Assembly: GCA_016748015.1 (NCBI GenBank) | Contig: JAAOMT010000009.1 | Coordinates: forward strand, 2,278,200-2,342,199 | DNA from: Geosiphon pyriformis uo1 | Taxonomy: Eukaryota; Fungi; Glomeromycota | Length of the DNA stretch: 64,000 nt | Direction of reading: 5' to 3' | Part shown: positions 706 to 58,077 of the stretch, piece after piece | How the letters are laid out: the number at the start of each line of letters is the position of its first letter | Numbering within the stretch: the first letter of the stretch is position 1 | Notes under the pieces: generated by a model | The model's input: the letters and a program-made list of their open reading frames with translations, nothing else | Told to the model about the DNA's origin: nothing | Databases searched by the model: none | Program-made: the position numbers and the translations under genes

Positions 706-738
706 TTTTTTGTTATTATTGTCACATGTTTTGGTTCC

Positions 739-1670
739 TTATATATTGTTTTGGTAAATTAAATCAACATGTTTTGTTTCAATATATATGATTGGTTTCA
801 GATCTTGTGGAATCTTATTTGGTCTTACTAGTGTTTTTTGTACTCCCAGTTATAAAATACTATTAGTAGATAATAATATGTAGTAATAGAATTTTAGTTA
901 ATTACTATATACTGCTTTGGTTAAGATTTTGTTGTCCTATCTTAATTTATAAGTTCCATTTTCTAGAATTTTTTTAATATAAAATGGTCCATTCTATTTG
1001 GGATTAAACTTCTCACTCCATTGTTTTTTTACTTTAGTACAATGTAAAAGTATTTTGTCTCCAATCTTAAATTCGACTAGTTTATTTAGTAATTGGTTAT
1101 CATGCTGTTTTTTTTGTTTTTTTTGTGACTTTTGGATATTATTAGCTGCTTTTCGTTATTTGTTTTCCAAAGTTTCTATTAAGTCATATGTTTTTCTTAA
1201 TAATATTTCTTAGAAATTGTCTTCTGTTATTGGTTTTGTTAGATATATGTTAATTTCTAATTCAACTGATAATATTGTAATTCTATTATATACTAATTTA
1301 AATGGTGTCACTTGTGTGATATTTTGTTTTATTGTCCAATAAGCAAATAATACTAATAGTATAAATAAATCTCATTCATCCTGGTTTTCTTGGCTGATTT
1401 TGGCAATTGCTTCACATAATGTTCTGTTAAACTTTTTAATCAAACTATTTGTTTGTAGATAGTATGATAATGATAATAGTTTTTTGATTCCAAATTTTTG
1501 ACTTAATTCTACTAGTGTTCTGTTTACAAAATAAGTTCTTTAATCTAATAGTAATTTTTTTGAACATCTATGTTAACAAATTAGATTTTAATGAACAAAT
1601 TTGGCTATGGATTCTGCATCTGCTCTTTAAATTGCTTTTGCTTTTGGCCATTTTGTAAAATAATCTATAG
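739..1670 (-). pseudogene. Integrase C-terminal two-thirds, element D
   Basis: DYFTKWPKAKAI, degenerate NGLVERFNRT and GPFYI motifs; cut at 1670 by the LTR of E. Confidence 0.85.
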
Positions 1671-8555: not shown

Positions 8556-9972
8556 TTATGTTTTGTATATTTTAAAGAGGTTTGTAAAAGTGTTCAAGTT
8601 TGGTTGTTGTTCTATTATAATTATTGGTTCTAAATTTTGGAAAATATCTTCAGGATTAATTAAAAGAGAATGTGTACCAATTTGTGGAATTAATGATTCA
8701 AGATTGTTTCTAAAGTAATAGTGTTTCAATTGATTTCTATGTGCAACTTTTGCTAATACTTTGTTATCAAGTCTTAACTTGTATGATCCATTGTCCAGAA
8801 TTTCGTAAATATAAAATGGTCCATCCCATTTATGTTCAAATTTTCCACTCCATTGTTTTTCAGCCTTAGTTTTGTATAAGAAAACTTTATTTCCAACTTT
8901 AAATTTGTTGGTAACTGGTAGCAGTTTGTTGTCATGTCTTTTATTTTGTAGGGCTTGGAAGTGTTCAATATGAGTGGCTGCTATGTGTCTTTTTCCTTTC
9001 AATGTACTAAAGAGAGTGTAGGCTCTTTTTTGGAGTGTTTCTTGAAAGTTTTCTTCATTGATTGGTTGCACTGAATATGTTTCCACTGTGGAATTAATTG
9101 GTAATGTTGTTGTTTTTCCATAAGTAAGATCAAATGGTGTGTGTTTCATAGTATCTTGTTTTAGTGTTCTGTATACTAGTAACACTGATGGAATAAAGAT
9201 ATTCCATTTTTGCTCAAAATTTGTTGAGACTTTGGCTAAAGATTCACACAATATTCTGTTGAACTGTTCTACAAGTCCATTTGTTTGAGAGTAATAAGAT
9301 AATAATAAAAATCGTTTGACATTGAATCATTCACAAATTTCTTGTATCAAGTTGTTCACAAAATGTGTTCTTTGATCTGATAAGAGTTCAATTGGGCATT
9401 CATGTCTACAAATAATGTCTTTATAGATGAAATTTGCTACTGATTTTGCATCTGCTCTTTGGATGACTCTAGCTTCAGACCATTTGATAAGATAATCTAT
9501 TGCAACTACAATATAACAATTTCCTTGGGTTGTGATAGATAATGGTCCGATTAAATTAATTCCCACTCTGTCAAAAGATTGTCCAAATTTGATTGGATTT
9601 AAAAGTTCTGTGAGGCAAGTTTCTTCTTTTCTTTAACAACTATCACAAAATTCTATATATTGTCGAATGTCTTTTTACATGTGAAGCCAAAAATAATGTT
9701 TAAAGGTTCTTTGGATTGTTCTATTTCTTCCCAAATATGCTGAAGATGGATTTGTGTACATGTTGTATAGAATTGTTTTTTTTTTCATTTTCTTGTACTA
9801 GTCTGAGTGATTGGTTTGGGTTTCTATGATTCTTGTAATAAATTTTGTTGTGGTGTATAAAATATTGTTTGAATTGATGTTGTAATTGATGTTTTTCACT
9901 TGGAAACCAATTTTCTGATATGGTAAGAGTCTCCAAATAGTTTTTAATGTTGTTGTAATTTCTGAAATCCAT
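8556..9972 (-). pseudogene. Stand-alone integrase ORF of A1
   Basis: Own ATG (MDFRNYNNIKNYLE); GINLIGPL, LLSDQRTHF, NGLVEQFNR and KWDGPFYI motifs. Confidence 0.9.
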
Positions 9973-10029
9973 TGTTGTTTGTTTATTTTATTGGTAGATT
10001 AGTGAGTTGTAGTGGATTTGTTGTTGGTA

Positions 10030-13000
10030 TTAATCTTGTTTTATTCTTAAGAGACTATCAACATTGGTGTGTAGTTTTCCTGGTTTGTGGTATATAATAT
10101 ATTTGTAGTCTGCTAGGAAGTTATTCTATCGAAACTGTTTGGTACTTTGTTCAGTTTTCTTTTTATTGAGCCATTTGAGACCAATATTGTCAGTTATAAT
10201 ATTGAATTTTTTTCCATTCTTTAGATATTGTTAAAAATGTTTGAGAGCCCAAATGACTGCAGCAGTTTCTAATTCAGTTAAGCCATATTTGAGTTCTGTT
10301 GACTTGAATGTTCTACTGACATAGGCAATAACTTGTTTTTGGCTATTTTCATCTAATTGTGATAAGATAACACCAAATGCTATGTGTAAAGCATCAGTGG
10401 CTAGTTAAAATTGTTTGTTGAAATCTGGATAAGCAAGAACTGGAGCTGTTGTTAATTTTGTCTTAAGAGTTTCAAAAGCTTTTTGTTGTTCTTTAGTCTA
10501 TTGGTATGGCATGTTTTTGTTGGTAAGATAATTGAGTGGTTTGGCAATTTCTGAAAATCTTTTTATGAATTTTTGATAGTAAGAGGCTAATCTTACAAAT
10601 TCTTGTAGTTCTGTGGTATTTTTGGAAGTTTAAAAGTTTTTAACAGCACTAATTGTTCTAGGGTTTGGTTTAACTCCATCTTTGCTAACAATGTGTCCAA
10701 AAAAAATTAGACTTGTTTTTCCAAAATAACATTTCTCAATGTTTAGCTTTAATTTTGCTTTCCATAATTATTGAAAAACTTCTTACAGGTGGATAAAATG
10801 AGCTTCAAAGCTTGGAGAGTACACATTAGTATCATCAAGATAGACAACTACTAATTGCCACAAGAGTCTTTCATATACAACATCCATGAGTCATTAGAAT
10901 GTTGCTGGTGCATTACAGAGTCCAAAAGGCATAATATTAAATTCATAGTTTCTTTCTTGAGTGGTAAATGCTGTTTTGGGTCAGTCTTTTGGATCTATTT
11001 CGACTTGCCAGTATTCATTTTCCAAGTTTAAAGTTGAGAAGAACTTGGTTTTTCCTAAAGCATCTAGCATGTCATCAATTTTTGAAAGTAGATAGGCATT
11101 TCTAATTGTCACACTATTGAGCTAACAATAATTTACACAGAATCTGATTTTTCCGTTTTTCTTTTTAACAAGTACTACTAGTGAGGCCCAAGGACTTCTT
11201 GATGGTTAAATCAATCCGTTATTGAGCATTCTTTGGACCTCTTCTTTAATAAATTGGTGGCTAGCAGGTAGAACTTAATAGGCTTGTTGTTATTTTGGTG
11301 GAGCATCTCCTGTATGAATCTGATGTTGAACAATATCAGTTTTTTCAAGATCATTGTTGTCTTTTGCAAATATGTTAGCAAATTCAACTATTAGCTGTTT
11401 TAATTTCTTTGTTGTTGAGGTTCTAAGGGGCCCATGTTGATTTGAGAGAGTTTTTCTTCCAAAAGGTGGTAGTTTTCAATAGTAGAAATGATATTGGGAT
11501 TTGGGAGTAATGTATGTCTTATAATTTCGATAAAATTAGAGACAATTTGAGGGTTTTCATCTTGAAAGATGTTATTATATATGATTCTAATTTCTAATTT
11601 ATTTAATAAGACAATAGGGTAATTGTTGGGATTGTAGAATATAACTCAAAATTTTTTCATTTTTTTGGGAATATAAACATTTGGAATTGAAATTTCATGC
11701 TTTAAACAAATTTGTTTATTAGATTCAAAGATTTGTTAGATAGTGGTGGGTTTTGAGCAAGTGTAAATTTCATAATATTCTTCAAATGGTAAAATAGTAA
11801 TTGGTTGGAGAAGTTGAAAAATCTGGTGAGATTCATTCTGTGTATTGAGAGCTATATTTACTGGTACTGTAAATTGTTTAGTTGAACCAAAACCTTGCAT
11901 TCCTCTTTCACTTTTTCCCAATTGTTCTCTGTTGTTAGTTGATTGTAAATTCGAAATGTTGATTAAGAATAGGTAAATTGCTTAGACAATCTTTTTAGTA
12001 TGTTCAATCCTAAATGGTTTGTATGTTTCATTCTGTAACATAATAGTAATGTCTTTAGTATATTCTGCATCTATAACTCCTTCTCTAACATTAATTCCTT
12101 TGCTTGTCAATAATGATCAAGAAGCAATTTGTACTATTGCTCTTAGTGGTATTTCCAAAGCAATTCTGAGATTAATTTTGGTTAAAAATTTTGGTTGAAG
12201 AACCAAAGTGTCTTTGCCAAGATATTTTAGGTCATATTCTGCATCAATTTCATGGGCTTTTTCTGGTTTTATTTCTTTTCCATTGTTGTCAAAGTATTTG
12301 AGTTGTATAGCAGACTGGTTTTCAATAAGATAGATTGATGTGGTTGTAATTTCTTCTTTTGTTTCCACTTTTCCAAATTCAATTTCTTCCTGGTCATTTT
12401 TGTTGAATAAGAGAATGCTAAGAGCATAGTATTTTGGACACCATTTGTCATCACAAGGCATGATGCATTCTTTACACAATTGAATGTTCATTTGCTTTAA
12501 TCATTGAATTTAAGCTTTTTGGGTTGGATATGTGTGGTTTGCAATTTGGTAATATGTTTCTACTTTATCTTTATAGTTGAATCTAGCTAATTCTATTGTA
12601 TATTCAATGTACTCAGCTTCTTTCATTTGGCAGACATCTTCCTGTATGGCTCTATTAATTAAAGTCATTGCTAAATCAAAGATCATTTCAGCATTATAAG
12701 GGTAGTGGTAGAATTTGTTGAGAGCACTGTTGTATGTTGCATCAAATGATGTTCCTTTTTTTACTTTTTCCGAAATTGATAGGGCATATTGATAGGTTTG
12801 GTCATATACTCCTCCCCTTATTGCAACATTAATTCAGTTGCATTCTTCTGGTAGCATATCTCCACATGTGAAACAAGGAGTGTTGTCCCATTTTCCATTT
12901 CTTTTTGGGGATCCAAATCGTTCTCTATGGCATGCTTTGCAGAAGTAGCAGGTATGAGTTTCATATTTCTTTTCTGGAAAAATACAGGCTCCCATAGATG

Positions 13001-17940: not shown

Positions 17941-18082
17941 TTATAGAAAGATGAGTTTTTTTCTCTCATTGATTCCCTGACCACAACAAAAGTGAAAGAT
18001 AATTTTAAAGAAATTGCTTTTTTTTTCCCTCTCCCCTCAATCCCTGTTAACTATTTCTTCTAACTTACCTTTATTTGTTGCA

Positions 18083-28300: not shown

Positions 28301-31300
28301 TAGACTACTATAAAAATTAGTAGTAATCTACTTAAATAACACCAATGTGTTCTTAAAAACATTCAATGACTATCTCTATTATCTTTAACAAGTATTTGAA
28401 AGACTAAAAAAAGCTGGATTAAAGTTAAATACAACCAAATACTTTTTTAGAAAAATTAAACTCAAGTTTTTGGAACATGTCATAAACAAAAATAACATCA
28501 AAACAAACCCAAACAAAATTAAAATAGTTAAAAACTTTTCAATACCAACTAACTTGACAAAACTAAGAGCATTCTTGGGATTTACAGAATACTATTGCTG
28601 TTTTATCCAAAATTTTTCCAAACTGGTGTAATTATTTTACCAGTTCCAAGCAAAAAATGTAAAATATAAATGGGCTAAAACCCAACAAAAAGCTTTTAAT
28701 ATCTTAAAAAGAAAACTTATTTAAGCTCCAGTACTAATTTATTCAGATTACAACAAATCATTTATTATCATTATTAATGCATTCAGCCAAGCATTAAGAG
28801 CTGTATTATCACAAAAAGAAACAAATACACAAAAACATTTAGTAATATATATCAGCCAAAGTTTAAGTTCAGCCAAAAAAAACTATAAAACTCTATTAGA
28901 ATACTTAATTATCTATTAAACTGTTATCAAATAAAAAAAATACTTAAACCAAAAGTTTGATGTATATACTAATCACAAAAAATTGACATCAATTCAGAAG
29001 TAAAAATTTGGAGACAATTGTTATACAAGATAGAAAATAGAATTATCACTATTTAATTATACTATACATTATAAAAAAGAAAAAAAAAATAAAAATGCCA
29101 ACAGTTTATTATAAATAAAACAAATCTAAGAATATTTCAACCCAAAAATATCACATAAAAATAAACACAAAAAAATATTAATAACTTTAATATTATATTA
29201 ATACTTAACAGTTTAAGAAGAAATTATCTCAAAAAAAACAAAACAACATAAAACAACAAGCAAAATATTTTATTACTTACCAAAATATATTATATTGAAA
29301 AAACAAAAAATACTTAAATTAGCCATTTAAAGTAATTACAGAACCAGAAAAAGAAACAATACTGTTCAATATGTATTCAGATTTAATAACAAGACATTTT
29401 TATAAAGAAGCAATCATAAAAAGAACAAAAAAAAAATATTATTGGCCATCTATGTATTCAAATATTATCTAATATATCTAAAATTGTGATGCTTGTCAAA
29501 GAAGAGAAATTAAATTCAGTAAACTACTAAGACTAATTAAAATGAAACAACTATTTGATTGAATTAAAATTGACTTAGTTGGATCATTAACAATAATTAT
29601 CAAAAGCAATTATTACATAGTAGTAGTCATAGACTATCTCATAAAATAGCCAGAAATGAAAGCAATTTAAAGAGCAAATACAGAATTTATAGCCAAATTC
29701 ATACACCAAGATTTAATTTGTCAACATAGATGTTCAAAAAAATTATTATTAGATCAAGAAACTCACTTTGTAAACAGAATATTAATAGAATTAAATCAAA
29801 AATTTGGAATTAAAAAACTATTATCATCATCATATTATTTACAAATAAATAACTTTATTAAAAAGTTTAATAGAATATTGTGTAAAATAATCGCCAAGAT
29901 CAGCCAAAAAAACCAAAATAAATGGGATTTGTTTATATTATCAGTATTATTTGCTTATTAAACAATGAAACAAAATACTATACAAGCAACATTATTTGAA
30001 TTTGTTTATAGTAGAACAGTAATATTACTAGTAGAAATAAATATTAACACATATCTAACAAAACCAATAACAGAAGTCAACTTCCAAAGAATATTGCTAA
30101 AAAAAACATATAACTTAATGAAAACTTTAAAAAACAAAAGACAAAAACAGTTGATAACATACAAAAATCACAAGCAAAACAAAAAAAGCAACATAATAAT
30201 TAATTACCAAATAAACCAGTCGAATTTAGAATTGGAAACAAAATATTTTTGCATTATACCAAAGCAAAAAAACAATGGAGTGGAAAATTCAATTCCAAAT
30301 GAGATAGATTATTTTACATTAAAAAAATTCTAGGAAATAGAGCTTATAAACTAAGATAGAACAACAAAATCTTAATTAAAACAGCACATAGAGATTGATT
30401 AAACCATATCACAATATAGTATTATTATTTACCAGTAATATTTTACAACTGGGAGTACAATGAATACTAGTCTAATCAGATAAAATTCTATAAGATCTAG
30501 AATTATCATAATTATCAACACAAATACATTAAATTAATAGAAAAGAAAAGTATATAAAAACCAAAAACACATAACAAAAACAAACAAAAAAATTAAAATT
30601 ACTGACAATATCTACTTATTTGTATAACAACTGTTTCAACTAATCCAATACTAATAATTAAACATAGAAATTACAATTAATCAACAAATTATTCAGTACA
30701 AAAATAGAGAAAAAAAGCCAAAACACCAATACAAAAGACATAACAAATTAAAAAACATAGTAGATAATATATTAGCAAAAGTAAGATTAGCAGTAGAAAT
30801 ACCAAGAACAATAATATTATATAAGAAATTAATAGAAGAAATTAATAAAAGAAAACTAGAAATAATAGACACAACAATTTTCAAGAAACTTTTGCTATTA
30901 TTACTTGGAACAAAATCTTAATATTTAAAATTTGTATACTAACAATACAAAATAATTGTTTGATATAACAATATTGTATTAACTTGAACAATTTGTAAAA
31001 AAAAACAACCTATTCACACAAACACAAATTATATACCAGTTATAAACAAGATTTTAAAACTGATCAGAAATACTATTGTATCTAATAATAAATACAATAA
31101 TCATTAATCAATTAAGAAAGATTACCAATATCTAATTCAAAGAATTACAGATCAAAATTTTCCAAGTAATTCTTGAAAAAAAAGTTAAAGAGTTAATCCA
31201 AGAAGAGAAGTTAAAAAATTAGGAAATTTTGATAGAGCTTAATATTAAAAAAAGAGAATAATATTATTTATAAAAATTTAAGAATTATTAATAAGAAGAT

Positions 31301-35080: not shown

Positions 35081-36466
35081 TTAAGTATTCAAGTTTGGTT
35101 GTTGTTTTATTATAATTATTGGTTCTAAATTTCAAGGAATATCTTCAGAATTAATTAAAGGGGAATGTGTACCAATTTGTGGAATTAATGGTTCAAGATT
35201 GTTTCTGGAATGATAGTGTTTCAATCTGTTTCCATGTGCAATTTTTGCTAGTATTTTGTTATCAAGTCTTAATTTGTATGATCCATTGCCTAGAATTTTA
35301 TGAATATAAAATAGTTCATCTCATTTGTTTTCAAATTTCCCACTTCATTGTTTTTTAGTCTTAGTTCTGTGTAAAAGAACTTTATTTTCAACATTAAATT
35401 CATTGGTAATAAGTGGTAATTTGTTGTCATGTTTTTCTTTTTGTTGAGCTTGGAAATGTTTAATATGAGTTGCTGCTATTCTTTTTTTTCCTTCCAGTGT
35501 ACTAAGAAGAGTGTAGGCCCTTTTTTGGAGTGTTTTTTGAAAGTTTTCTTCATTAATTGGTTGCACAGGATATGTTTCTACTGTGAAATTAATTGGTAAT
35601 GTTGCTGTTCTTCCATAAGTAAGGTCAAATAGTGTGTGTTTTGTAGTATTTTGTTTTAGTGTTCTGTATGCTAGTAACACTGATGGAATAAAAATATCCC
35701 ATTTTTGCTCAAAATCTGTTGAGACTTTGGCCAACAATTCACACAATGTTCTGTTGAACTATTCTACAAGTCCATTTGTTTGAGAGTGATAAGACAATGA
35801 TAGAGGTCTTTTAATATTGAATCATTCACAAATTTTTTGTATCAAGTTGTTCACAAAATGTGTTTTTTGATCAGATAAAAGTTCAATTAGACATCCATGT
35901 TTACAAATAATGTCTTCATAGATGAAATTTGCTACTGATTTTGCATTTGCTCTTTAGATGGCTCTAGTTTCAGGCCATTTGGTAAGATAATCTACTGCTA
36001 TTACAATATAGCAATTTCCTTGGGTTGTGATAGGTAATGGTCCAACTAAATCAATTCCAACTCTGTCAAACAGTTGTCCAACTTTGATTGAATTTAAAGG
36101 TTCTGTGGGGCAAGTTCTATCTCTTCTTTAACAACTATTACAAGATTCTACATATTGTTGAATGTTTTTTTGCATGTGAGACCAAAAATAATGTTCAAAA
36201 GTTCTTTGAATTGTTCCATCTCTTCCCAAGTGTGCTAAAGATGGATCTGTGTGCATGTTATATAAAATTGTTTCTTTTTCATTTTTCTGTACTAATCTGA
36301 GTAGTTGGTTTGGGTTTTTATGATTTTTGTAATAAATTTTGTTGTGGTATATAAAATATTGTTTGGATTGGTGTTGTAATCGATGTTTTTCACTTGGGAA
36401 CCAATTTTCTGGCATGGTGAGAGTTTCCAAATAGTTTTTGATGTTGTTGTAGTTTTCTGGATCTAT
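35081..36466 (-). pseudogene. Stand-alone integrase ORF of A2
   Basis: MHTDPSLAHLG...CNSC (H2C2 finger), GIDLVGPL, LLSDQ; start ATG decayed to ATA. Confidence 0.9.
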
Positions 36467-36522
36467 TGTTGTTGATTTTGTTGTTTGTTCTACTGTTAAG
36501 TTTATTGGTGTTAATGTTGGTA

Positions 36523-38371
36523 TTAATATTGTTTCATTCTTGAGAGGCTGTCAACATTAGTGTGTATTTTTCCTGGTTTGTGGTGTACAATATATTTGTA
36601 GTCTGCTAAGAAGTCATTCCATTGAGACTGTTTGACACTTTGTTCAGTTTTCTTTTTATTGAGCCATTTGAAACTGATATTGTCAGTTATGATGTCAAAT
36701 TCTTTTCCATTCTTCAGATATTGTTGAAAATGTTTAAGAGCCCAGATGATTGTGGCAGCTTTTAATTCAGTTGAGCCATATTTTAGTTTTGTTGATTTGA
36801 GTGTTTTATTAGCATAGGTGATGACTTGTTCTTGTCTATTTTCATCCAATTGTAATAAGATGACACTAAATGCTATATGTGAAGCATTAGTGGTTAATTG
36901 GAACTGTTTGTTGAAGTCTGAGTAAGCAAGAACTGGGACTGTTGTCAATTTTGTTTTGAGAGTTTCAAAAGCTTTTTGTTGTTCTTCAGTCCATTTGTAT
37001 GGCACGTTTTTGTTGGTAAAATAATTGAGTGGTTTGACAATTTCTGAGAATTTTTTTATAAATTTTTAATAGTAAGAGGCTAATTCTACAAATCCTCTTA
37101 GTTCTGTGGTATTTTTGGGAGTTTGAAAGTTTTTGACAGCATTGATTGTTACTGGATTTGGTTTGACTCCATCTTTATTAACTATGTGTCCAAAAAAAAT
37201 TAAGCTTGTTTTTCCAAAGTGACATTTTTCAATGTTTAACTTTAATCCTGCTTTCCATAATCATTGAAAAACTTCTCACAAGTGAATGAGGTGAACTTCA
37301 AAGCTTGGTGAGTATACATCAGTGTTATCAAGATAGACAATTATTGATTGTCATAAAAGCCCTTCATATACAACATCTATGAGTTGCTGAAATGTTGCTG
37401 GTGCATTGCAGAGTCCAAAAAACATAATATTGAACTTATAGTTTCCTTCTTGAGTGGTAAATGCTGTTTTGGATGGGTCTTTTGGGTCCATTTCGACTTG
37501 TCAGTATCCACTTTCCAAGTCCAAAGTTGAGAAGAACTTGGCTTTTTCTAAAGCATCTAACATGTCATTAATTCTTGGAAGAGAGTAGATATCTTCAATT
37601 GTCATACTGTTTAATTGGCAATAGTTAACACAAAATCTGATTTTTCCATTTTTCTTTTTGACAAGGACTACTGGTGAGGCCCAAAAACTTCTTAATGGTT
37701 GAATTAATCCGTTATTGAGCATTCTCTGGACTTCTTCTCTAATGAATTGGTGGCTGGCAGGTAACACTTTGTAAGCTTGCTGATGTTTTGGTGGAGCATC
37801 TTCTGTATGGATCTGATGTTAAATCATATCCGTTTTTCCCAGATCATTGTTGTCTTTTGCAAATATATCTGCAAATTCAGCTATCAATTGTTTCAATTGT
37901 CTTTGTTGTTGAAGTTCTAAAGAACTCATGTTGATTTAAGAGAGTTTTTTTTCCAAAAAGTGGTAGTTTTCAGTAATGGAAATGATATTTGGATTTGGGA
38001 ATAGAGTGTGCCTTACAATTTCGATGAAATTAGAGACAATTTGAGGGTTTTTATCTTGAAAAATATTGCTGTGTATGATTCCAATCTCTAATTTGTTTAA
38101 TAAAACAATAGGGTAATTATTGGAATTGTAGAATATAACTTGAAATTTTTTCATTCCTTTGGGAATATAAACATTTGAAATTGAGATTTTATGCTTCAAA
38201 CAGATTTGTTTATTGGATTCAAAGATTTGTTAGATAGTAGTGAGTTTTGAGCAAGTGTAAATTTCGTGATGTTCTCCAAAAGATGAAATGGTAATTGGTT
38301 GGGGAAGTTGAAAAATCTGGTAAGATTTATTTTGTATTTTAAGGGCTATGTTTACTGGAACTGTAAATCAT
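36523..38371 (-). pseudogene. RT-RNase H of A2
   Basis: WASPVVLVKKKNGKIRFCVNY, TLDLESGY, YLDNTD, TTNASH, ITDN, HKPGKIHTNVDSLSRMKQY*. Confidence 0.92.
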
Positions 38372-39931: not shown

Positions 39932-41314
39932 TTAATTTGACATGTTGTTGTCAATGATAATAATTGGTTCCAGATCTCATAGAATCTCCTCTGGTTGGAC
40001 TAGTATCTTCTGTACTTCTAATTGTGGAATATTACTGGTGGATGGTAGTGTAATGTTGTGGTATGGTTTCAGTTGATCTTTATGTGCTGCTTTGATTAAG
40101 ATTTTGTTATCCAGTCTTAATTTGTAAGCTCCATTCCCTAGAATTTCTTCTATATGAAATGGTCCATTCCATTTGGAGTCAAATTTTCCACTCCATTGTT
40201 TTTCTACTTTGGTATGATATAAGAGTACTTTGTCTTCAATCTTGAATTCAACTGGTTTGTCTGGTAGTTGATTATCATGTCTTTCTTTCTGTTTCTCTTG
40301 TGACTTTTGTATATTATCAGCTGCTCTTCTTTGTTTGTTTTCCAATGTTTCCATTAAGTTATATGTGTTTTTTAACAATGTTTTTTGGAAATTCTCTTTT
40401 GTTATTGGTTCAGTTAGATATGTGTTAACCTTTATCTTAACTGGTAATGTTGCTGTTCTACTGTATATCAATTCAAATAGTATTGCTTGTGTGGTGTTTT
40501 GCTTCATTGTTCAATAAGCAAATAATATTGATAGTATGAACAAATCCCATTTGTCCTGGTTTTTTTGGCTGAGTTTTGCTATTGTTTTACACAATGTTCT
40601 ATTAAATCTTTTAACTAATCCATTGGTTTGTAGATAGTATGGTAATAATAGTGGTCTTTTAATTCCGAATCTTTGGCTTAGTTCTGCTAATGTTCTATTC
40701 ACAAAATGGGTTCCTTGGTCTGATAATAGTTCTTTTGGACATCCATGTCAACAAATCAGATCTTGATAAATGAATTTGGCAATGGATTCTGCATCCACTC
40801 TTTGAATTGCTTTGGCTTCTGGTCATTTAGTAAAATAGTCTATGGCTACTGCAATATATTTGTTGCCTCTGCTAGTAATTGTCAATGGTCTGACTAAATC
40901 AATTTCAATGTGGTCAAATAGTTGTTCCACTTTGATTGGTCTCAATGGTTCACTGGGTCTTGTTCCTTCTTTTCTTTGACAAGCATCACAATTTTGCATA
41001 TATTGGATGATGTCTGGATACATTAATGGCCAATAATATCTCTTTCTGGTTTTTTCTATGGTTGCTTCTTTATGAAAATGTCCTGTAGTTGGATCTGAGT
41101 GCATGTTGAACAGTATTGTATCCTTTTCTGGTTCTGTAATTATTCTGGTTGGTTGATCTGAATTTTTTCTATTTTTCTGATAAAGTATATTTTGGTGAGT
41201 AATAAAATATTTGGATTGTTGTTTGATCCTCTTTTGTTTCGGTTGAGATAATTTCTCCTTGAACTGTTAAGTATCTATATAATGTTGAAGTTGTTAATAT
41301 TTTTGTGTGTTCAT
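39932..41314 (-). pseudogene. Stand-alone integrase ORF of B
   Basis: ATG at 41314 (MNTQKY); MHSDPTTGHF...CDAC, IDLVRPL, LSDQGTHF, KWNGPFHI. Confidence 0.92.
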
Positions 41315-41378
41315 CTTTTGTTATATTTTCATAAGTATTGTTTTGGTTTTGCTATATTTTTTTTGGGTTGAAATGTTC

Positions 41379-44300
41379 TTAGATTTGTCTTATTTGCAAC
41401 AAACTATTAGCATTTCTGTTGTCTTTTCCCTTTTTATAATGTATAGTATAAGTATATGTTGAAAGAGCCATTTTCCATCTTGACTGTCTTCTGTCTCCAA
41501 ATTCTTGTTTTTGGAGTGATGTTAATCTTTTGTAATCTGTGTACATCTCAAACTTTTGGCTCAAGTATTCTTTCCATTTCATAACTGCCCAATAGATTGC
41601 TAAATGTTTTAATTCTGGTGTTCCATAGTTCTTTTCAGCTGGAGTCAAACCTCGACTGGCATATATGACTAGATGTTCTCTTTCATCCAATTTTTTCTGA
41701 AATAGTACTGCTCCCAATACTTGACCTAATGCATCAGTAGTGATAATGAATGGTTTACTATGATCTGGATAGATCAATACTGGAGCTTAGATAAGCTTTT
41801 TTCTTAAGATGTCAAATGCTTCTTGCTGGGTTTCAGTTCATTCATACTTTGCATTTTTGGTTTGAAGATCATTGAGTGGTTGTACTATCTTTGAAAAGTT
41901 TTTTATAAAGCATCTATAATAGCTTGCGAATTCCAAGAATAATTTCAGCTTGGTTACGTTGGTTGGTATTGGAAAGTTTTTTACTATCTCTATTTTCTCT
42001 GAATCTGTTTTTATGCCATTTTTGCTAATTATGTGTCCCAAGAATTTTAGCTTTGTTTTGCCAAAAAAACACTTTGTTGCATTCAATTTTAATCTTGCTT
42101 GTTGTAGTTTTTCAAACACTTGTTGGAGATGATGTAGATAATCATTAAATGTTTTTGAGAACACATTGGTGTCATTTAAGTATACAACTACTGATTTCCA
42201 CAATAAGCCAGTATACACAATTTCTATTAGCTGTTGGAATGTAGCTGGAGCATTGGTTAAGCCGAATGGCATAACTTCAAACTCAAAGTTTCCCTCTCTT
42301 GTAGTGAATGCCATTTTTTCTTTGTTGGCTGGATCTATGGCTACTTGCCAGTAACCACTATCCAAGTCTAATGTTGAAAACTATTTGTTTCCACCAAAAG
42401 TGTCGAATAGTTCTTGTATCCATGAAGTTGGATAGCTGTCTTCATGAGTTACACCATTGAGTTTTCTGTAGTCTACACAAAATCAGATTTTTCCATTCTT
42501 CTTATGGATAAGTACTACTGGTAATAACTATGGGCTCATTGATGACTGAATTAACCTATTGTCAAGCATTTGGTTGATCTCTTGATGGATGATTTCATGG
42601 CTGGCTAGTGGTACCCTGTATACTTACTGTTTGATTGGCATTACATCTCCAGTCTTGATCTGATGCTGTATAATATCAGTTCTGCCAAATTTGTTTTTAC
42701 TGGTGAAGATGTCATTGAAATTATTAAGTAACATCTTTAGTTGCATCTGTTAAAGTGGGTCTAGATTTCTCATGTTCATCTGTTCCAATTGTTCTGGCTG
42801 TAACAGATAACATTTGTTTTGTTCATAGATGGTTTGTGATGTAATGTCCACATATTCACAAAGCTGTGAAAAATCTGGAATGCTGCTTGGTGCTTGATCT
42901 TTAATTTCCATGGTTAAATATTCAAGAGTGGTTCTTTCCAGTATCTCTACAACATTTCTGGTGTTGTTATAGATGAGAATTTTGATATGGTTATGGCTCT
43001 TGGCTGGTATGTGTAGATTGATAAGTCCAATTTTTCTTGATTCACAAAGAGTTGCTTCTGCTTCAAAAATCTGTTCTTGTTTCTTCTCTCTCTTTTTTAT
43101 TGCTAACATGTATCGACTATATGGTAGAATAGAAATTGTTTGACTGGTTGAGATAATTTCTCCACCATATTGACTGGTACATCTATTCTACTCATTGATC
43201 CAAATCCCTGTATCCCTCTTGCTGTTATCCCTAATTTTTCTCTATTTTCTACTAACACTAACTGAGCTATTTTAACCAGAAGCAGAAATATTGCCTGTGC
43301 TATCCTTTTATTTGGCTCTATAACATAGGCCTTTTCTGAGTCATTTTGTAGCATAGCAATAATATTTTCTATATACCCTGCATCAATTATTCCTCCTCTG
43401 ATGTTTATTCCTCTTTTTGTTAAACTACTCCTCGAAACTAGTTGAACCATTGTTGTTGCTGGAATTTTCAGTGTTATTTTCAGATCGATGCAAGTATGCG
43501 AATGGAATTCCAATTTGATGGTGTTTTTTCTTAGATATCTTAGATCAAATCCTGCATCAGTATCATGCACACATTTTGGCATGATATCTTTATCATTATC
43601 ACTGAACCATTTTAGTTCTTGCTCCTTAGTGAGATCAGAGAGTGTGATATATTGTTCATAGTTTGAATTGGAGTTTGAATCTGAGTTGGAATCATTGTCA
43701 TTGTTATAGCTATTTTGAATGGAGCTGGAACTGTTATTTTCATTATTGTCATTGTCGGAGTTTGAATTGGGGTTGAAACTCAATTCTAATTCTGATGCAC
43801 AGCTGTTGATTGGTTCTTCTTTTTTGGGGATTGTATAGATCATGCGTGGTGGTAGATTGTAGATGAGGTCACAATCATCACAGAATTGGAAGTCACATGG
43901 AATCAAACAGTGTTCACATAATTAGGTGTTGATTTTTTTCAAGTGTTGCTTTTGCTCTTCTCTCGTGGGTGCTAGATTCTGATAGTGTTCATGGAATTCT
44001 TCTGGGCTGTTTTCTATGTCAATAAAGACATCCGGGTTAAGAACCAAAACAATGTCTGTTGGTTCTGAAGAGTTATTCTTGATCTCCAGAATTTCCTTGG
44101 GCGAAGTGCCTTCTACTTTGGCATTGGCCATTCACCAGATCTTATCCTTATCATGTGGATAGCCATTTAAGCAAAATATAGCTCGGTGCCATGCTGCTGT
44201 GATGGGTGTACCATGACTTACCCAGTCGCTGATGAGGATCATGTATTGGCATAAAGCATCACATGTTCCTCCTTAACCAGGAATGTTGTCTTATATTCCT

Positions 44301-48546: not shown

Positions 48547-49205
48547 ATGTGAGCACATTGCTCAAGAAATCATAGCACATTACTTGAAAATGTGAATAAT
48601 CTCATAAAACATCAATTATGTATATATAATGGTAGCATTAAAAGAAAAAAAGAAAGACCTCTCAGTTTAGATTTGATCTAAGCAATCTTTTACATCACAA
48701 ATATCAATAAATAATTATTTAATTATCTTAAATTCACTTCTTACTATTAACACTTTATGTTGATAGTAATTAATACTTAACTATACTGGAACAATAGCTC
48801 TTGATTATGGCTATTAACAGGATATTAGCATTTATTGTCTTGGTCTATTTCTTTATTTTTTTTTATTTTTCTTTGTTATTTTTGTTTACTAATTTATAGA
48901 GAATTAAGTGCTGAATTATTGACATCAAGAATAGCCTGGTAAAAGACCCCAAAGAAAGGGTATAACAATGAAAATTTAAGAATAGCTTACCAGAAGAGCA
49001 TTTCTGCCAGATTACTAACCACCATGCTGAGAAAAAAATTGGGCAGAATTACAATTTCAGAAGGCTACTGAAACAATTATTGAATCTCTGTTCATTATAC
49101 AAAGAACTCTACCAAAATTTTCAGATATCAACACTATTATATTAGTTGAATACCAAGTTATGGGTTTGTTATTTGCTTTGAAACCCCAAATAATTACCTG
49201 TAACA
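48547..49205 (+). repeat. 5' LTR of C (first ~125 nt missing)
   Basis: Aligns to the 3' LTR from ~57609; ends CCTGTAACA before the PBS. Confidence 0.9.
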
Positions 49206-49267
49206 TTTGGTGCTTTCTGTGAAGTATAATTCTACAGAGAACCAACACCAACAACCATTATTCAAAA

Positions 49268-52200
49268 GTGACAGAATTAGAAATAATAGGGACAAACCAT
49301 TTAGAATTCACTAAATCTTTATTCCAACAGTACAGCCAATAATTGGACTTAACCAACAACCATTATCCAGTGGAATCAGCCTTTAACTTTTATGTCAATG
49401 AAAGAATCCCAGATTTTTTGGGAAGACCAGTTAACATTGAATTAGCAAGAAAAAATTTCTATACAGAACTAATTCAACATATTAGCTTACCACAAAATTA
49501 CAGTTTTGTACCAATTATCAGAGAAATTAATCAAAAAATTGAAAGATACACTCAACAACAATTCCCCATCACCTATGCAAATAAAAGTAAAAAAAAGTTA
49601 CAAACACCAACAGCAATTCCAAAAAGAATACAATTACCAACATAGAAGAAACAAAGAATTGAATCTCTATTATATCCATCATACCATCACATACCTGAAA
49701 GCACCATCAATATTATATTAGCAGGTGTGTCCACATCAAATGTGATATCAACATTTGAACAACTACCATTTTAAAGTAAACAAAAAAAAGTGGAATTATT
49801 AGGAACTTACAACAATTATTTCGAAAAATTTAAATTGTAATTACCAATGCTATCAGGATTCCAATCACCACCACCTCCACCAGATTTCGGAACCGCAAGT
49901 TCTTGGGAGATAACAGCATCAGAAATTTAATTATCAAAACCCAATCCCAGAAAACTCAAAATTTAAAAACCCAAACAATTCAAACCCCAATAATATTAAT
50001 TAGCAAAATCAGAACCATCAAAACTCTGATTTAATTAATCAACTGAACTTATCTCCAGAAATTGTCATTGATTAGCCACCCATTGAACTGATTCAGCAAC
50101 CACTTTAATAACTACATCCATCACTAATACAACCACAACAATCGATTACATAAATGGCATATATACTAATCACAAAACTTAAAAAATTCATGGGCGAAGA
50201 AGATGACATCCAAGTATAACTCAATGACATAGAAAAAGCCATCATGGCTAATGGATGGAATGATGTCAGAGCCATGCAAGCCATCTCATATTTTTTTCAG
50301 AATACTGCCAACTCATGATATCAAAGCTTAGCCAACAAATCTCAGAACTTCAATGTATTTAAGCTTGCATTTTTACAATATTTCAGCAATAATAATAATA
50401 TTAATCATCTAGCAAATACCTTTACCACTATTAAACAAGAAAAAAATGAAGTAGTCGCTATCTACTTAGGATGCTTCCATAAAAATCTGCACCAAATTCA
50501 GGCAATTCAAGCCAATTATTTTACAGCACCACAAATTCTAAATCAATTCATTAGAGGTCTGTGCAGTAGCATTTTTCAACACATACATCCATTACATCTA
50601 ACAGACCTTTAAGCCACAGTCATCTACACCAGAGATTTTGAAGCTGCTGAATTAGAAGCCAACTATGTTCAAGCTGTAAATTTAGTGATAAACAGATTAT
50701 CTGACTTGAATTTTAAATTGAAGCAATTTAGTAAATCAATCAATCAAAAATTAGAGAAATACTTAGTTGACAATTGCACAATTTATTAACCTCCCTAACA
50801 ATACAATAATCAAGGAAACTTCAATTATTTTCAAAATCAATTGTGTTTATCATCATTAATCAATCAACAGTGGCAATCAAAAATGTGTTTGCCACTATTG
50901 TGGTAAACAAGAACATTTACAGTTTGAATGTTGCAAAAAGATAAATAACCAACAATTAGGAAATCAATATTGAAACCCCGATCACCAGTTTTAAACTCTG
51001 AATCAATACCCAAATTAGAATCAATACTCATCCTATTATACCCAAATAATTTAATAGCCAATTTATCAACTATCAGTGTATCAAGCTCTAATTTATCAAC
51101 TGACAACACTTATAATTTATTAGCTGCAGCCACAACCTATCTATCAACCACAGTCCCAAGTAATATATCAGCTTCCACAAATTCAAACACTGCCACAAAA
51201 CAGAATCCAAAAACTGAAAATAACACAACAAAGCTGGAGATTGGTAATAGTAGTTCATTAATTGATTCTCAGTTTTTTAATTCAACCATTGGGATCTTGA
51301 CAGTGGAATTTGGGCACCAAATACACCTAAAACCTGAATTCTCAACACTATTTAAGTCTCCTGGTTATTCCAAAAGATGTCTTATCCAACAACCAGAAAC
51401 CCAACCAAAACAAATCACATATCAACAACATATCTCCAGCCACCATAATCAATAATAAATTGCTAACAGCAATTTTTTTATTTAAATTCGAAGAACCATT
51501 ATCTATGCCATTGTTCAGTAGAGTTATGTTCGAAGAAAAACCAATCACTACTATGTACATTAATGCTAAAGTTGATGGCCACTTCATCAAACTTATACTA
51601 AATAGCAAGTTAACAGACAGTATTATTACATGACAACTTATGGACCAATTAAGTTGCTGAATTGATTGCACTGCCAGTATAACTACTAATGAAGTGACCA
51701 AAACTCCAATTGACAAGATTGATGATCTTTTTATAGAAGTAAACAGCATTATCATACCAATTAAAGTATTAGTTATAGAAGCCACTCAGTATCAAGCTCT
51801 TGTTGGCAATAACTGGTTGTTCAAGACCAATGCAACACTCAATTGGAACATACAAAAGCTCCAACTCAGCCAAAATAATTAATACACACATATACCAGCC
51901 ATGTGTGATCACTTTAAACCCATTACTATGTCATTAGCACCCCTTATTGAGTTTGACAACAAAAAAAAACCTACTTGGGAAGCCTACCAAGTCTCTTGGG
52001 CTGATGATAACCACAACAAATTACCACCAATATTGTCTTAGAATGACAAAAAAAAGAAAAAAAGAAAAAAAAAACATGTTTAAGAAACTGACCAAGGATC
52101 GTGGACTAATAACAACTAAGTCAAGCCATTACCAATTTGGACTTAAGAAGAAAAAAAAAAAGGAAAGAAAAGAGAAAAACCAGTCTTAGCTACTGCTTCA

Positions 52201-55200
52201 ACATATAGTCCTTATATTACACTCCAAACCCAAACAAATTACTGATAACCCAAACTTGTATGCATCAATTGTGGTAAGAAATTGTTATTAATGGGTGCAT
52301 GCTGTGGCAATGATAAAAAATACTCAACAGCAACAAAGTTTTATTGCCACCCATGCATCTTAGAATGTTTTGAATGACCAAAACAACAAGAAAAATGAGA
52401 TAACAAATCTTGTTTCACTTGTGGAGAAACTTTTTTCAATGAAGGAATGTAGAACAACATTCCTGGAAGAAGAGAAACATGCAACAAATTGTGTTAATAC
52501 ACGATTCTAATAAGTAACTGGATAAGAAAAGAGACACCAATAGAAGCAGCCTGGAAAAGAGCAGTAAAATGTCTGGATGGATGTTCACATGATGATGACA
52601 AAATCTGGTAAATTGCACTTGCCAAAATTAAAGAAATGTTATTAGAAGAAATAAGAATGATCAAAAACAATCTACTAGAACTCATAAAACTTAACTGGGG
52701 CTCAAACTCAGAGATTATCCTAGAGCTTATGGACCCAGAACAATTTTATAAGTACTACCAAGAATTAGCACCCACTAGAGAGAAATAAGAGCAATGGTTG
52801 GAAGAAATAAACACAAGACTATGTGACTATTGTTTGATCCCATATGACTTCCAATATTGTAATGAGTATAACCTCATTTACAATTCACCACTATGCATAA
52901 TCTATATGATTCCAGAAAAAAACAAATCAATCAGCAGCTGTGCATCAAAATCGGAATCAACTTTCAATTCTGATTCAAACTTTAACAATGATGACAATAA
53001 AAACAATGGTTCCAGCTCCACTTAAAATGGCAATGAAAATAACAACAATTTGGACTTCAATTCAAACCCCAAAACATACATCACACTTCTTGATCTCTCC
53101 AAAGAGCAGAAACTCAAATAGTACAGTAACAACAATAAAGATATTATGCCAGAATGAGCACATAATACAGATGCCAGGTTTGATCTAAGATATCCAGAGA
53201 AAAATGCCATCAAATTAAAACCACATTCATGCATTTGCATTAATCTGAAAATAGCACTGGAAATTCTAGCAACAATAGTTCAATTAACATCTAAGAGTAG
53301 TTTAGCAAAAAAGGGAATTAATATTAGAGGAGGAATAATTAATGCAGAATATGTAGGAAATATCATTGTAATACTACAAAATGACTTAGAAAAGGCCTAC
53401 ATCATAGAGCCAAATAAAAAAATAGCACAGGCAATATTTCTGTTTTTGGTTAAAATAGCTAAATTAGTATCAATAGAAAACAGAAAAGAATTAGAAATTA
53501 CAGCTAAAGAGATACAAAAATTCAGATCAATGGGTAAAATAGATGTACCAGTTAATTTGGCAGAAGAAAAAATTGTTGACAAGGGAGAAATTATCTCCAC
53601 CCATTAATCAATTTCTATTCCACCATATGACTGGTATATGGTAATTATAAAAAGAAAAATGAAGGATCAGATTCAGATTATTGAGACAGAAGCAACACTT
53701 TATGAATTAGGAGAAATTGGATTAGTCAATCTACACATACTAGCCAAAAACCACAGTCACATCAAAATTTCCATTTACAACAACATAAAAAACATTATTG
53801 AAATACCAGAAGGAATTATCATTGGATATTTAACCACTGAAATTGAAGATCAACTGCCAAACACCATTCCAGACTTTCCATAATTGTGTAGATATGTAGA
53901 TATCACATCTCAAACAATATACGGATGAAAAAAATGTTATCTGCTCCAACCAGAACAATTGAAACAGATAAACTTAAGAAATTTAGACCTACTACAATAT
54001 ATGCAATTTAAGATGTTACTTAACAACTTCAACAACATATTTGCAAGCAAAAATGAATTTGGAAGAACTGATATAATTCAGCATCAAATTAAGACTGAAG
54101 ATGCAATACCAATTAAACAAAGAGCATACAGAGTACTACCAGCCAGCCATGAGATTATTCATCAAGAAATCAATTGAATACTTGACAACAGGCTAATTTA
54201 GTTATCTATGAGCTCATAGTCATCACCAGTAGTACTAGTCTGTAAAAAAAATAGGAAAATCCACTTTTGTGTGGATTATTAGAAACTAAATAGAATAACA
54301 AAAAGTAATAGCTACCCAACACCAAAGATCCAAGAGCTGTTTGACACTTTCGGAGGAAAGAAATAGTTCTCAACTTTAGACTTAAACAGTGATTACTGAC
54401 AAGTAGCCATGAAACCAGAAGATAAAAAGAAAACAACTTTTACAACACAAGAAGAGAATTTTGAATTTGAGGTTATGCTATTTGGCTTGATGAATGCTCC
54501 AGCCACATTCCAATGGCTTATGGAAATTGTCTATACCAGATTGCTATAGAAATCAGTAGTCATATACTTGAATAACACCAATGTGTTCTCAAAAACATTT
54601 GACAATTATTTGCATTATCTTCAACAAGTATTTGAAAGACTCAGATAAGCAGAATTGAAATTAAATGCAAACAAGTGCTTCTTTGACAAAACAGAACTTA
54701 AGTTTTTGGGACATGTTGTAAGCAAAAATAGTATCAAAACAGATTCAGATAAGATTGAGATTATTAAGAACTTTCCAGTACCAAATAATCTTACAAAATT
54801 AAGAGTATTTTTGGAATTTGCTGAATATTACTGCCACTTTATCAAAGACTTTTTTAAAATAGCTCAATCACTACATCAATTACAAACAAAAAACACAAAA
54901 TATGAATGGACAAAAACTCAGCAAAAAGCTTTTAATACATTAAAAAGAAAGCTTATTCAAGCTCTAGTATTGATCTATTCAGATCATAGTAAACCATTCA
55001 TAATTACAACAAACACATCCAGTCAAGCATTGGGAGTAGTATTATTTCAGAAAAGACCAGATGGATAAGAACATTCAATAACTTATGCCAGTAAAAGCTT
55101 AAGTCCAGCTGAAAAGAACTATAGAACTCCAGCACTAGAACACTTAGCTATCTATTGGACTGTCATCAAATGGAAAGAATACTTGAGTCAAAAGTTTGAT

Positions 55201-55368
55201 GTGTACACTGATCATAAAGAATTGACTTCAATTTAAAAGCAAGAATTTGAAGATGATTACCATGCCAGATAAAAAATAGAACTTTTACTATTTAATTATA
55301 CAGTACATTACAAAAAAGGAAAAAAAACCAGAAATGCTGACAGATTGTCACAAATAAAACAAATCTAA
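49268..55368 (+). pseudogene. ORF1 of C: gag-PR-Cys-rich-dUTPase-RT-RNase H
   Basis: Capsid Met at 50154; CHYCGKQEHLQFEC; protease near 51590; dUTPase ~53110-53540; RT; RNase H; TAA at 55366-55368. Confidence 0.9.
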
Positions 55369-55398
55369 AAACATTTTAACACAAAAATATAACAAAAA

Positions 55399-56780
55399 AT
55401 GAATATACAAAAATACCAACAACTCCAACATTATATAAATACTCAATTGTTCAAGAAGAAATTATCTCAAAAAAAACAAAACAACATAAAACAACAATTA
55501 AAATATTTTATTAACCATCAAAATATACTTTACTGGAAGAACAAAAGAAATTCAAATCAACCAACTAGAGTAATTACAGAATCAGACAAAGAAACAATAT
55601 TATTCAACATGCACTCAGATCCAATGACAGGACATTTTCACAAAGAAGCAACTATAAAAAGAACCAGAAAAAGATACTATTGGTCATCTATGTATCCAGA
55701 TATTATTCAATATGTTCAAAATTGTGATGTTTATCAGAAAAGAGGAGGAATAAAATCCAGTAAACTATTAAGACCAATCAAAGTGGGACAACTATTTAAT
55801 TGTATTGGAATTGACTTAGTTGGACCATTAACCATAACCAGCAGAGGCAACAGATATATTGCAGTCGCCATAGACTATCTCACAAAATGGCCAAAAACAA
55901 AAACCATTTAAAGAGCAAATGCAGAATCTGTTGCCAAATTCATTCATCAAGATTTGATTTGTCAACATGAATGTCCAAAAGAACTATTATCAGATCAAGG
56001 AACTTACTTTGTGAATAAAACATTGACAGAATTAAGTCAAAAATTTGGAATAAAAAGACTATTATCATCACCATACCATTCACAAACAAATAGGTTAGTT
56101 GAAAGATTTAACAAAACACTGTGTAAAACAATAGCCAAGATCAGCCAAAAAAACCAGAACAAATGGAATTTGTTTATACCATCAGTATTATTTGTTTACA
56201 GAACAATAGAACAAGACACTACACAAGCAACACTATTTAAATTAGTATATGGTAGAACAACAACATTACCAGTTGAGATAGAAGTTAGAACATATTTAAC
56301 AGAACCAATAACAGAAGAAAATTTTCAAAAAACATTGCTAAGAAGAACATATGACTTAATGAAAACACTAGAAAACAAACAGCAAAAAGCAGTTGATAAC
56401 ATTTAAAAGTCACAAAAAAAACAAAAAAAAAGACATGATAATTAACTAATAAATAAACCAGTTGAATTCAGAATTGGAGACAAAGTACTTCTACATTGTA
56501 CCAAAGCAGAAAAACAATGAAGTGGAAAATTTGACCCCAAATAGAACAGACCATTTTACATAGAAAAATTCTAGGAAATAGAGCTTATAAATTAAGATGG
56601 AATAACAAAATCTTAGCCAAAACAGTACATAGTGATTGACTAAAACCATATTACTATATAGTGTTGCCATTCACCAGTAATATTCCACAATTAGAAGTAC
56701 AAAGAATACTAGTCCAACCAGATAAGATTTTACGAGATCTGGAACCAATCATAATAATTGAACCAAACACATCAAATTGA
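55399..56780 (+). pseudogene. Stand-alone integrase ORF of C
   Basis: MNIQKYQQLQHY; MHSDPMTGHF; IGIDLVGPL; LLSDQGTYF; LVERFNKT. Confidence 0.92.
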
Positions 56781-56804
56781 ACAACCAAAAGAGTATATAA
56801 AGAC

Positions 56805-57471
56805 ATAGTATATATGACAAAAGCAACAAAAAAAAATAGAAATACTAGATTATATTTACACTTTAGCTCAATAATTGTTTCAGGCTTTAAGTCAACAGCA
56901 AGTAAACATGGAAATTATTATCAATAACCAAACAATCTGTTATCAAAACACCAAACAAAAAGGGAAAAAACCACCATATCAGCAATCATAGAAACAATTA
57001 ATAAACTGGTCAGATAAAATAATAAAAAAAGTAAAGAACACTTTTGGAAAGATAACCATTACAGTTCCAACAAAAGAACTGGTAAAAGAAAATTAGAACA
57101 AATAAATAGACCAACTTCCAATACTATACTGCTACTATCAATTGGAACAAAAAGTAGATATTCAAAAGTTATATCTTGACAAATCCAAAATAATTTTCAA
57201 TCAAGAGATAGTCTGAAACATTGAAGACATTATTAAAAAGAAAACAAACTTAACACTACACATTAGGACCATTTATTAACTACACATTATATTTCAAAAC
57301 TACCCAGAAGTATTATTATACTCTAACATAAAAACAATAACCATCAACCAATAGAGAAGAATAAACAACTTACAAATTGAAGAAATAAAGAATAAGATGA
57401 AACAGATACTACTGAAAAAAGAAGTATTCAATATAATTCAAAATAAGAATTTCAACAGAGCTCAATATTAA
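56805..57471 (+). pseudogene. ORF3 of C
   Basis: MEIIINNQTICYQ, YYCYYQLEQ, NNLQIEEI...NFNRAQY*; homologous to ORF3 of B and D. Confidence 0.75.
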
Positions 57472-57484
57472 AAAAAGGAGATAA

Positions 57485-58077
57485 TATTACTCATAAAAAA
57501 AAACAGATATAGAAAATAGTAAACCAATAGGAAAGTAGTAGTTAGCATGTGAGCATATTGCTCAGCAATGTGGAGCAATGTTAGAAAATTAGGGCACATT
57601 GCTCAGCAATGTGAGCATTGTTCAAGAAATCATAGCACATTGCTTGGGAATATGAGTGATCTTATAGAACATCAATTATGTATATATAGTAGTAGCATTA
57701 AAAGGAGAAAAAAGAAACCTCTCAGTTTAGATTTGATCTAAACAACCTTCCACATCACAAATATTAATAAATAATTATTCAATTATCTCAAATCTACTTC
57801 CCATTATCAACACTTCATGTTGATAGTAATTGATACTTAACCATACTGAAACAATAGCTCTTGATTATGGCTATTGATAGAATATTAACATTTATTGCCT
57901 TGGCCCATTTTTTTATTTTTTTTATTTTTTATTATTATTTTTGTTTACTAATTTATGGAGAATTAAGTGCTGAATTATTGATGTCAAGGATAGCTTGGTA
58001 AAAAACCCCAAAGAAAGAGTATAATAATGAGAATTTAAGAATAGCTTACTAAAAGAGCATCTCTGCCAGATTACTGG
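57485..58077 (+). repeat. 3' LTR of C (interrupted by A3)
   Basis: Follows the PPT; matches 48547-49017; CCAAT near 57524; TATATATA near 57681. Confidence 0.9.

Follow-up and report, generated by a model that had tools for sequence, protein, structure and literature searches.

Introduction

In textbook LTR retroelements and in retroviruses, integrase (IN) enters the particle as part of Gag-Pol. The position of IN within Pol is a usual trait of Ty3/Gypsy elements, not a formal criterion of the Metaviridae. According to the papers cited in this section, the Ty3/Gypsy domain order is carried by DGLT-A in a single ORF (PMC5911963), and fungal LTR elements have IN inside the pol polyprotein (PMC3248453). 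LINE-1 has a 63-nt spacer before ORF2 that is thought to be scanned (PMC5972666), and SART1 uses an overlapping UAAUG for its second ORF (PMC5972666, PMC10275272). Termination-reinitiation works on fungal ribosomes in the victorivirus HvV190S and the hypovirus CHV1 (PMC10275272, PMC5972666); TURBS reinitiation operates with stop and start within 20 nt and is weaker beyond about 30 nt (PMC10275272). In Ginger1 the integrase stands alone, is Gypsy-like and bears H2C2 and GPY-type motifs, and Ginger1 is proposed to be Gypsy-derived (PMC2836005, PMC6839031), while the additional RNase H of Tat elements, a separate ORF, and the DIRS recombinase are replication enzymes encoded outside the Pol ORF (PMC10508981, PMC7192593). 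Among the titles and abstracts found in the literature, none describes a Gypsy element whose integrase has its own ORF further downstream, and the same holds for the papers cited here and the available sections of PMC6431247, PMC8487063 and PMC11673190; Repbase Reports, most subscription journals and supplements lay outside the scope of the search.

The window, by which we mean the whole 64,000-nt stretch of DNA that was analysed, holds nested, decayed LTR retrotransposons stacked across its length. These follow the Ty3/Gypsy plan (Metaviridae; Ty3, DGLT-A) in having LTRs with TG...CA ends, Gag, protease (PR), RT, RNase H (RH), and an IN that carries an H2C2 zinc finger, an rve core and an SH3-like tail, in the order Gag-PR-RT-RH-IN (Pfam matches in copy C; gag and PR by tblastn). 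Pfam RT_RNaseH and RT_RNaseH_2 are matched, and the RT tree places the elements among mostly unnamed Gypsy-like polyproteins, in a tree without named references or a non-Gypsy outgroup. Unlike Ty3/Gypsy elements, both the window copies and their intact relatives have IN not inside the Pol polyprotein but behind a stop, as a separate ORF with its own ATG; a third ORF (ORF3) follows, and a dUTPase lies between PR and RT. The split integrase is a clade-wide variation on this plan; how IN would be translated and packaged is what we infer.

Like LINE-1 and SART1, these elements encode a retroelement enzyme in an ORF that follows a stop. LINE-1 and SART1 differ in being non-LTR elements whose second ORF, an endonuclease-RT, needs no capsid entry, and the mechanism is in our case one that we infer. 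HvV190S, CHV1 and the TURBS viruses combine overlapping or close stop and start codons with upstream RNA elements (for TURBS, a distance within about 20-30 nt and an upstream UGGGA), whereas in the present elements 30-205 nt separate stop and start and no upstream element was found. Ginger1 is transposase-only, with terminal inverted repeats and without Gag, RT or LTRs. In the window, by contrast, IN follows RT-RH and is flanked by LTRs, and RNase H is likewise upstream of IN in the outside loci L002, L003, L007 and L010. In Tat elements the enzyme set apart is an extra RNase H, and in DIRS elements it is a tyrosine recombinase; neither is a DDE integrase. The Gypsy order with IN before RT, which we take to be Gmr1-like, is also distinct, as the window IN is downstream of RT and 11 IN-first database rows form a separate clade. 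The nearest named proteins come from Rhizophagus and Cetraspora, which makes a mycorrhizal-type fungus the likely host, and the window elements are part of a wide Gypsy-type group, likely of mycorrhizal fungi.

Results and Discussion

Retrotransposon families in the window

The stop-spacer-start junction occurs in two families, A (copies A1 and A2) and B/C/F. A1 and A2 are 85% identical, copies within B/C/F are 75-79% identical, and family A is about 60% identical to B/C/F. Decay is heavy, with 13-30 stops per copy in 828 codons and a CpG observed/expected ratio of 0.05-0.12. LTR pairs were identified for A1 and B, with ends TGTTA.../...TAACA. In copy C, Pfam domains occur in the order dUTPase, RT, RNase H, H2C2 zinc finger, rve core, and the region from PR through dUTPase, RT and RH to IN is a single frame if its stops are read as X. 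Gag and protease were located upstream in the window elements by tblastn with intact relatives as queries; in element D the gag, PR and RT matches all fall within one frame. Positions are collected in Table 1.

Table 1. Positions of LTRs, reading frames and junctions of the elements within the window.
Feature	Position	Strand	Remarks
Copy A1 LTRs	about 6791-7760 and 15681-16653		
Copy C 5' LTR	approx. 48612..49323	+	
Copy C 3' LTR	about 57672-58075		interrupted by element D, whose LTR starts at 58078
Copy C ORF1, part	50401..55365	+	rest of gag, protease, Cys-rich stretch, dUTPase, RT, RNase H; decayed; 5' end lies beyond the mapped part
Copy C stop TAA	55366..55368	+	ends the Gag-PR-dUTPase-RT-RNase H ORF, four codons past the last RNase H motif
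Copy C spacer	55369..55398	+	30 nt, G-free, in frame, second in-frame stop, no AUG
Copy C integrase ORF	55399..56780	+	own ATG at 55399; Pfam H2C2 zinc finger and rve core; about 460 codons
Copy C second A-rich spacer (TATATAA) and decayed ORF3	56781..57560	+	start and end approximate
Copy B junction	41312..41381	-	TAA 41381-41379, 64-nt spacer, ATG 41314-41312
Copy B integrase ORF	39932..41314	-	460 codons without frameshift; stop 39934-39932; then ORF3
Copy F junction	29127..29163	+	TAA 29127-29129, 31-nt spacer, ATA at IN residue 1 (29161)
Copy A2 junction	36464..36525	-	TAA 36525-36523, 56-nt spacer, ATA 36466 at IN residue 1
Copy A2 IN-ORF3 junction		-	IN stop 35083-35081; 146-nt spacer; ORF3 ATG 34934
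Copy A1 junction	9970..10032	-	TAA 10032-10030, 57-nt spacer, ATG 9972-9970
Copy A1 ORF3 ATG	8432	-	ATG common to A1 and A2
Truncated copy G (27-1668), IN-ORF3 junction	703..761	-	IN stop 761-759, ORF3 ATG at 705
TATATAA in IN-ORF3 spacer	56781-56800	+	4/4 copies
TATATAA in IN-ORF3 spacer	30538-30557	+	4/4 copies
TATATAA in IN-ORF3 spacer	39931-39912	-	4/4 copies
TATATAA in IN-ORF3 spacer	758-739	-	4/4 copies

Between the protease and dUTPase of copy C lies a Cys-rich stretch (about 52200-53100, + strand) that has homologues in A1, B and D and no Pfam match in copy C. Amid the LTR elements, long ORF fragments at 17996-23961 (+) carry motifs that presumably represent a non-LTR retrotransposon, namely its endonuclease, RT and RNase H.

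A stop between RNase H and integrase

The first-pass annotation of the window, made from the letters alone, had described a TAA after RNase H, a spacer and an integrase start codon in A1, F, A2, B and C, and every stop coordinate, spacer length and start codon that it gave is correct. The TAA lies four codons past the last RNase H motif in all five copies. The placement of the start codon at the homologous first IN residue is borne out by tblastn with P0002, an intact stand-alone IN, whose residue 1 falls exactly on the start codons of F, A2, B and C; the A1 match begins at residue 62, past a frameshift. The ATA found at this position in A2 and F fits decay, since G in TG context was lost at 13/59 (A1) and 10/59 (A2) control sites. 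The further argument that spacer lengths break frame fails for two of the five, 57 nt in A1 and 30 nt in C being multiples of three; each of these in-frame spacers contains a second in-frame stop. The spacers had also been called A/C-rich, which is true of the window families (0-6% G, 74-84% A+C) but not of the outside relatives (48-62% A+C). The G-poor zone extends beyond the spacer into the first 180 nt of IN. The longer spacer of copy B is a duplication relative to C and F, and the A1 and A2 spacers are about 67% identical, versus 85% in flanking sequence. The IN of copy C has decayed, with one frameshift near 56560, and ends at a stop at 56778-56780.

Across 828 ungapped codon columns spanning RT-RH, junction and IN, the junction is the only column with a stop in all five copies; coding columns have stops in at most three. 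Stop-prone columns, defined as those with CAA, CAG, CGA, TGG or a stop in all five copies (n=36), contain stops in 39 of 180 cells, and the product of the per-copy rates is 3e-4, the copies being partly non-independent. The junction stops had been held not to be independent products of decay, and this stands, because no other column behaves so and because intact relatives terminate at the same place.

Contigs of run X1 were mapped on 401 nt (5509 pieces). Among the 40 variants listed of 145, none falls at 55366-55368, while neighbouring derived letters vary at 55358, 55377, 55381 and 55398. This pattern favours a conserved TAA at 55366-55368, although it is suggestive only. A B-like longer spacer without the AUG of copy B appears, weakly, in 5-6 further records of the same run.

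Stand-alone integrases among intact relatives

A search with the copy B integrase, covering proteins of 405-1292 aa, returned 329 matches. Among the best 120, 119 are stand-alone proteins of 405-453 aa with integrase domains only. Met stands at residue 1 in 116 of these 119, and the second residue is Asp or Glu (G at +4) in 95 of the 116. With this second residue and a purine at -3 in 9/9 junctions, the IN start looks, as judged by sequence, like a true initiation site.

In a search for longer proteins, six of the 120 matches listed have at least 44% identity. Five are NCBI eukaryotic gene models that join upstream Gag/Pol parts to IN, each at a different place and with loss of conserved RT, RNase H or IN residues; we take these joins to be introns that were predicted across the stop. 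The sixth, P0125, looks like an RT-RH-IN-ORF3 fusion in one contiguous frame. It falls just outside the clade described below in the RT tree (from a shortened segment) and inside it by IN (support 100, FastTree), so that it could be either a retained fusion or a re-fusion.

Pol proteins that end after RNase H

The RT side gives a matching picture. Among 120 listed RT-RH matches (910-2897 aa), all 12 with at least 45% identity are without IN; at 44% identity, four of those listed are without IN and three have it. A tree of 99 rows was built from all 46 non-fused proteins of the 193 that passed the coverage filter, 42 of the 147 fused ones, P0125, four gene models, locus L010 and the five window copies; P0130 was omitted. 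The representative search was dominated by multi-RT gene models, and single-copy rows entered the tree. The five copies fall inside a 35-row clade (SH-aLRT 98, quick search), the other rows of which are 25 proteins without IN, L010 and four eukaryotic gene models, with no contiguous fusion. The count without IN leaves out 11 rows with IN upstream of RT, as well as nine other non-fused rows outside the clade that are perhaps cut at contig ends. In 16 of the 25 proteins the C-terminus lies no more than about 10 residues past the last RNase H motif, which is the place of the window stop; one continues for 23 residues past the motif, and eight have an extension of 65-302 residues. Three Gag-Pol/IN pairs share their longest-contig size (5689, 7746 and 7536 nt), circumstantial evidence that the partners are neighbours.

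DNA of the outside loci

Among 80 genome-contig loci, L007-L010 stood out as close relatives; a scan of metagenomes found three loci, and viral contigs gave three matches, partial and distant. L007, L008, L009 and L010 are filed within bacterial genome records though they are fungal-type retroelements, and contamination is the likely reason. At L007, RNase H is followed by a long acidic, Cys/His extension (one frameshift), two stops, 102 nt and a 409-aa IN without internal stops, after which come a spacer rich in U, an ORF3 of 146 aa and, at some distance, gag. The split is also present in L003 (205-nt spacer), in L010 (117-nt spacer) and in the near-identical, decayed L001 and L002 (66-nt spacer), while in L008 an intact IN is preceded by stops and no RNase H is visible. 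The outside spacers, at 66, 102, 117 and 205 nt, are 3-20% G. At L003 397-603, the spacer contains a 48-codon ORF.

A sense codon at the junction, named in the first-pass annotation as a finding that would speak against its reading, was seen in none of the relatives' loci. Its claim that IN has an ORF of its own, as opposed to one set apart by decay, is upheld, since the intact relatives show the same split. On this comparison of sequences, a real and clade-wide split of IN from Pol behind a genuine stop is, in our judgement, almost certain.

A second junction before ORF3

IN ends at a common stop in 4/4 copies of B/C/F/G, followed by an A-rich spacer with TATATAA and then by ORF3, which starts 24 or about 54-55 nt past the IN stop. 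The corresponding spacer is U-rich in family A and in L007, and that of L007 contains TATAAATA. TATATAA may serve ORF3 as a TATA box or an IN mRNA as its 3'-end signal. The ORF3 region of A2 is matched at E 0.001 by a profile built from four ORF3 sequences of outside loci, B and A2 match each other in ORF3 at 6e-4, and the ORF3 of L007 matches the tail of P0125, the one relative in which ORF3 is fused to IN, at 2e-11. ORF3 belongs to no Pfam family; Atlas matches at or below 0.83 are leads only, and the single-sequence structure model has a pLDDT of 36. With a second stop-spacer-start junction before this conserved frame, the layout amounts to three cistrons, and to judge by their sequences the elements look tricistronic.

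How integrase would be translated

The long Gag-protease-dUTPase-RT-RNase H frame ends at the TAA and IN starts at its own ATG; we give an even chance to the reading that IN is made by ribosomes reinitiating across the spacer. Ribosomes would end at the TAA, and a fraction of them would, after termination, scan an unstructured, AUG-free spacer and reinitiate at the IN AUG in its good context, as proposed for LINE-1 ORF2. Such a route would keep the amount of IN below that of Gag and RT, even where a single ORF encodes the latter two, and the free IN would associate non-covalently with the particle or the cDNA instead of arriving as a cleavage product of Pol. The spacer is AUG-free in 4/5 window copies and also in L001 and L007. 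Stop-to-start regions in the window fold at only 0 to -3 kcal/mol, and structure near the window junctions is not unusually stable (z from -1.1 to +1.2). TGGGA is absent upstream of all nine stops (one GGGA occurs in B), although decay may mask motifs in the window copies. Upstream AUGs, which scanning would reach first, are present in the spacers of L003 (three), L010 (one) and copy B (one), and the contiguous fusion in P0125 also counts against the split and against reinitiation. Because the outside spacers are long and hold upstream AUGs, and because no coupling element was found, reinitiation is favoured at even confidence and one alternative is retained beside it.

That alternative, which is possible although we hold it with distinctly lower confidence, is that IN and ORF3 are translated from subgenomic mRNAs. 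These would start at an internal promoter within the RNase H region or arise through splicing that joins the 5' leader to a spacer acceptor, as happens for retroviral env; the spacer would then be a 5' UTR. The long spacers with upstream AUGs in L003 and L010 suit such RNAs better than scanning. TATATAA in all four IN-ORF3 spacers of B/C/F/G, the L007 motif and the U-rich spacers of family A and L007 are consistent with them, and AG immediately precedes the start codon of IN in B, as it does in about 62% of the depth at 55398 in run X1. However, the A1, C and F spacers have no AG (decay may have erased it), no acceptor position is common to the families, and TATATA is, we assume, equally possible as a 3'-end signal.

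It is unlikely that the A-rich spacer is a cap-independent internal entry site that works independently of upstream translation. The composition and lack of structure of the window spacers would suit such a site, but the lower A+C of the outside spacers, the lack of a common motif and the low identity of the A1 and A2 spacers relative to the sequence around them all argue against it.

We regard it as very unlikely that IN is still made as a Pol fusion through readthrough, frameshifting or an intron that removes the stop. The spacers of A1, C, L001, L007 and L010 are multiples of three, the IN frame is open across the A2 spacer, and the five NCBI gene models link upstream Gag/Pol parts with IN; yet every in-frame spacer has 1-4 further in-frame stops, the gene models join at differing places and drop conserved residues, and a fusion would not require the invariant Met at IN residue 1. 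An intron fusing RNase H to IN was the other contrary finding named in the first-pass annotation. Its absence is borne out for the five window copies, L003 and L007, where no stop-free in-frame GT-AG join exists, but not for L001 and L010, which have candidate joins.

For family A, it is improbable that the stop once overlapped an upstream start codon since lost to decay, as both copies lose such a G at 3/59 control sites and the A1/A2 spacer does not look coding. That the stop is itself a decay artefact of a fused Pol, through C-to-T or G-to-A change in a Gln, Arg or Trp codon, is scarcely credible: the many stops, the low CpG ratio and the single frame of copy C would allow it, but the chance product is small, the stop is common to two families of limited identity, and intact relatives terminate at the same place.

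Implications of the split

A large, successful clade without IN in Gag-Pol means that the link between IN and Pol is not obligatory, and it provides a natural system for how free IN finds cDNA and how IN dose is set. The split also points to polycistronic translation on fungal ribosomes. Where gene models in mycorrhizal genomes bridge the junction by splicing, they are probably artefacts, and software that demands an intact Pol will misjudge intact elements of this clade as broken. As a tentative picture, the fungal clade might use a three-cistron mRNA (Gag-Pol without IN, IN, ORF3) translated by successive restarts, with IN separately dosed and reaching the cDNA without being cut from Pol, possibly aided by ORF3; this could be the source architecture for integrase-only Ginger1-like transposons.

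Variation in the Pol frame

A subgroup extends Pol by 200-300 acidic, Cys/His-rich residues past RNase H (L007 2-1149; P0289, P0294, P0303, P0307, P0325), and its five database proteins share a terminal LD. L010, the nearest tree neighbour of which is the short, RT-RH-only P0428, has an in-frame stop between PR and RT that may be a further split or decay.
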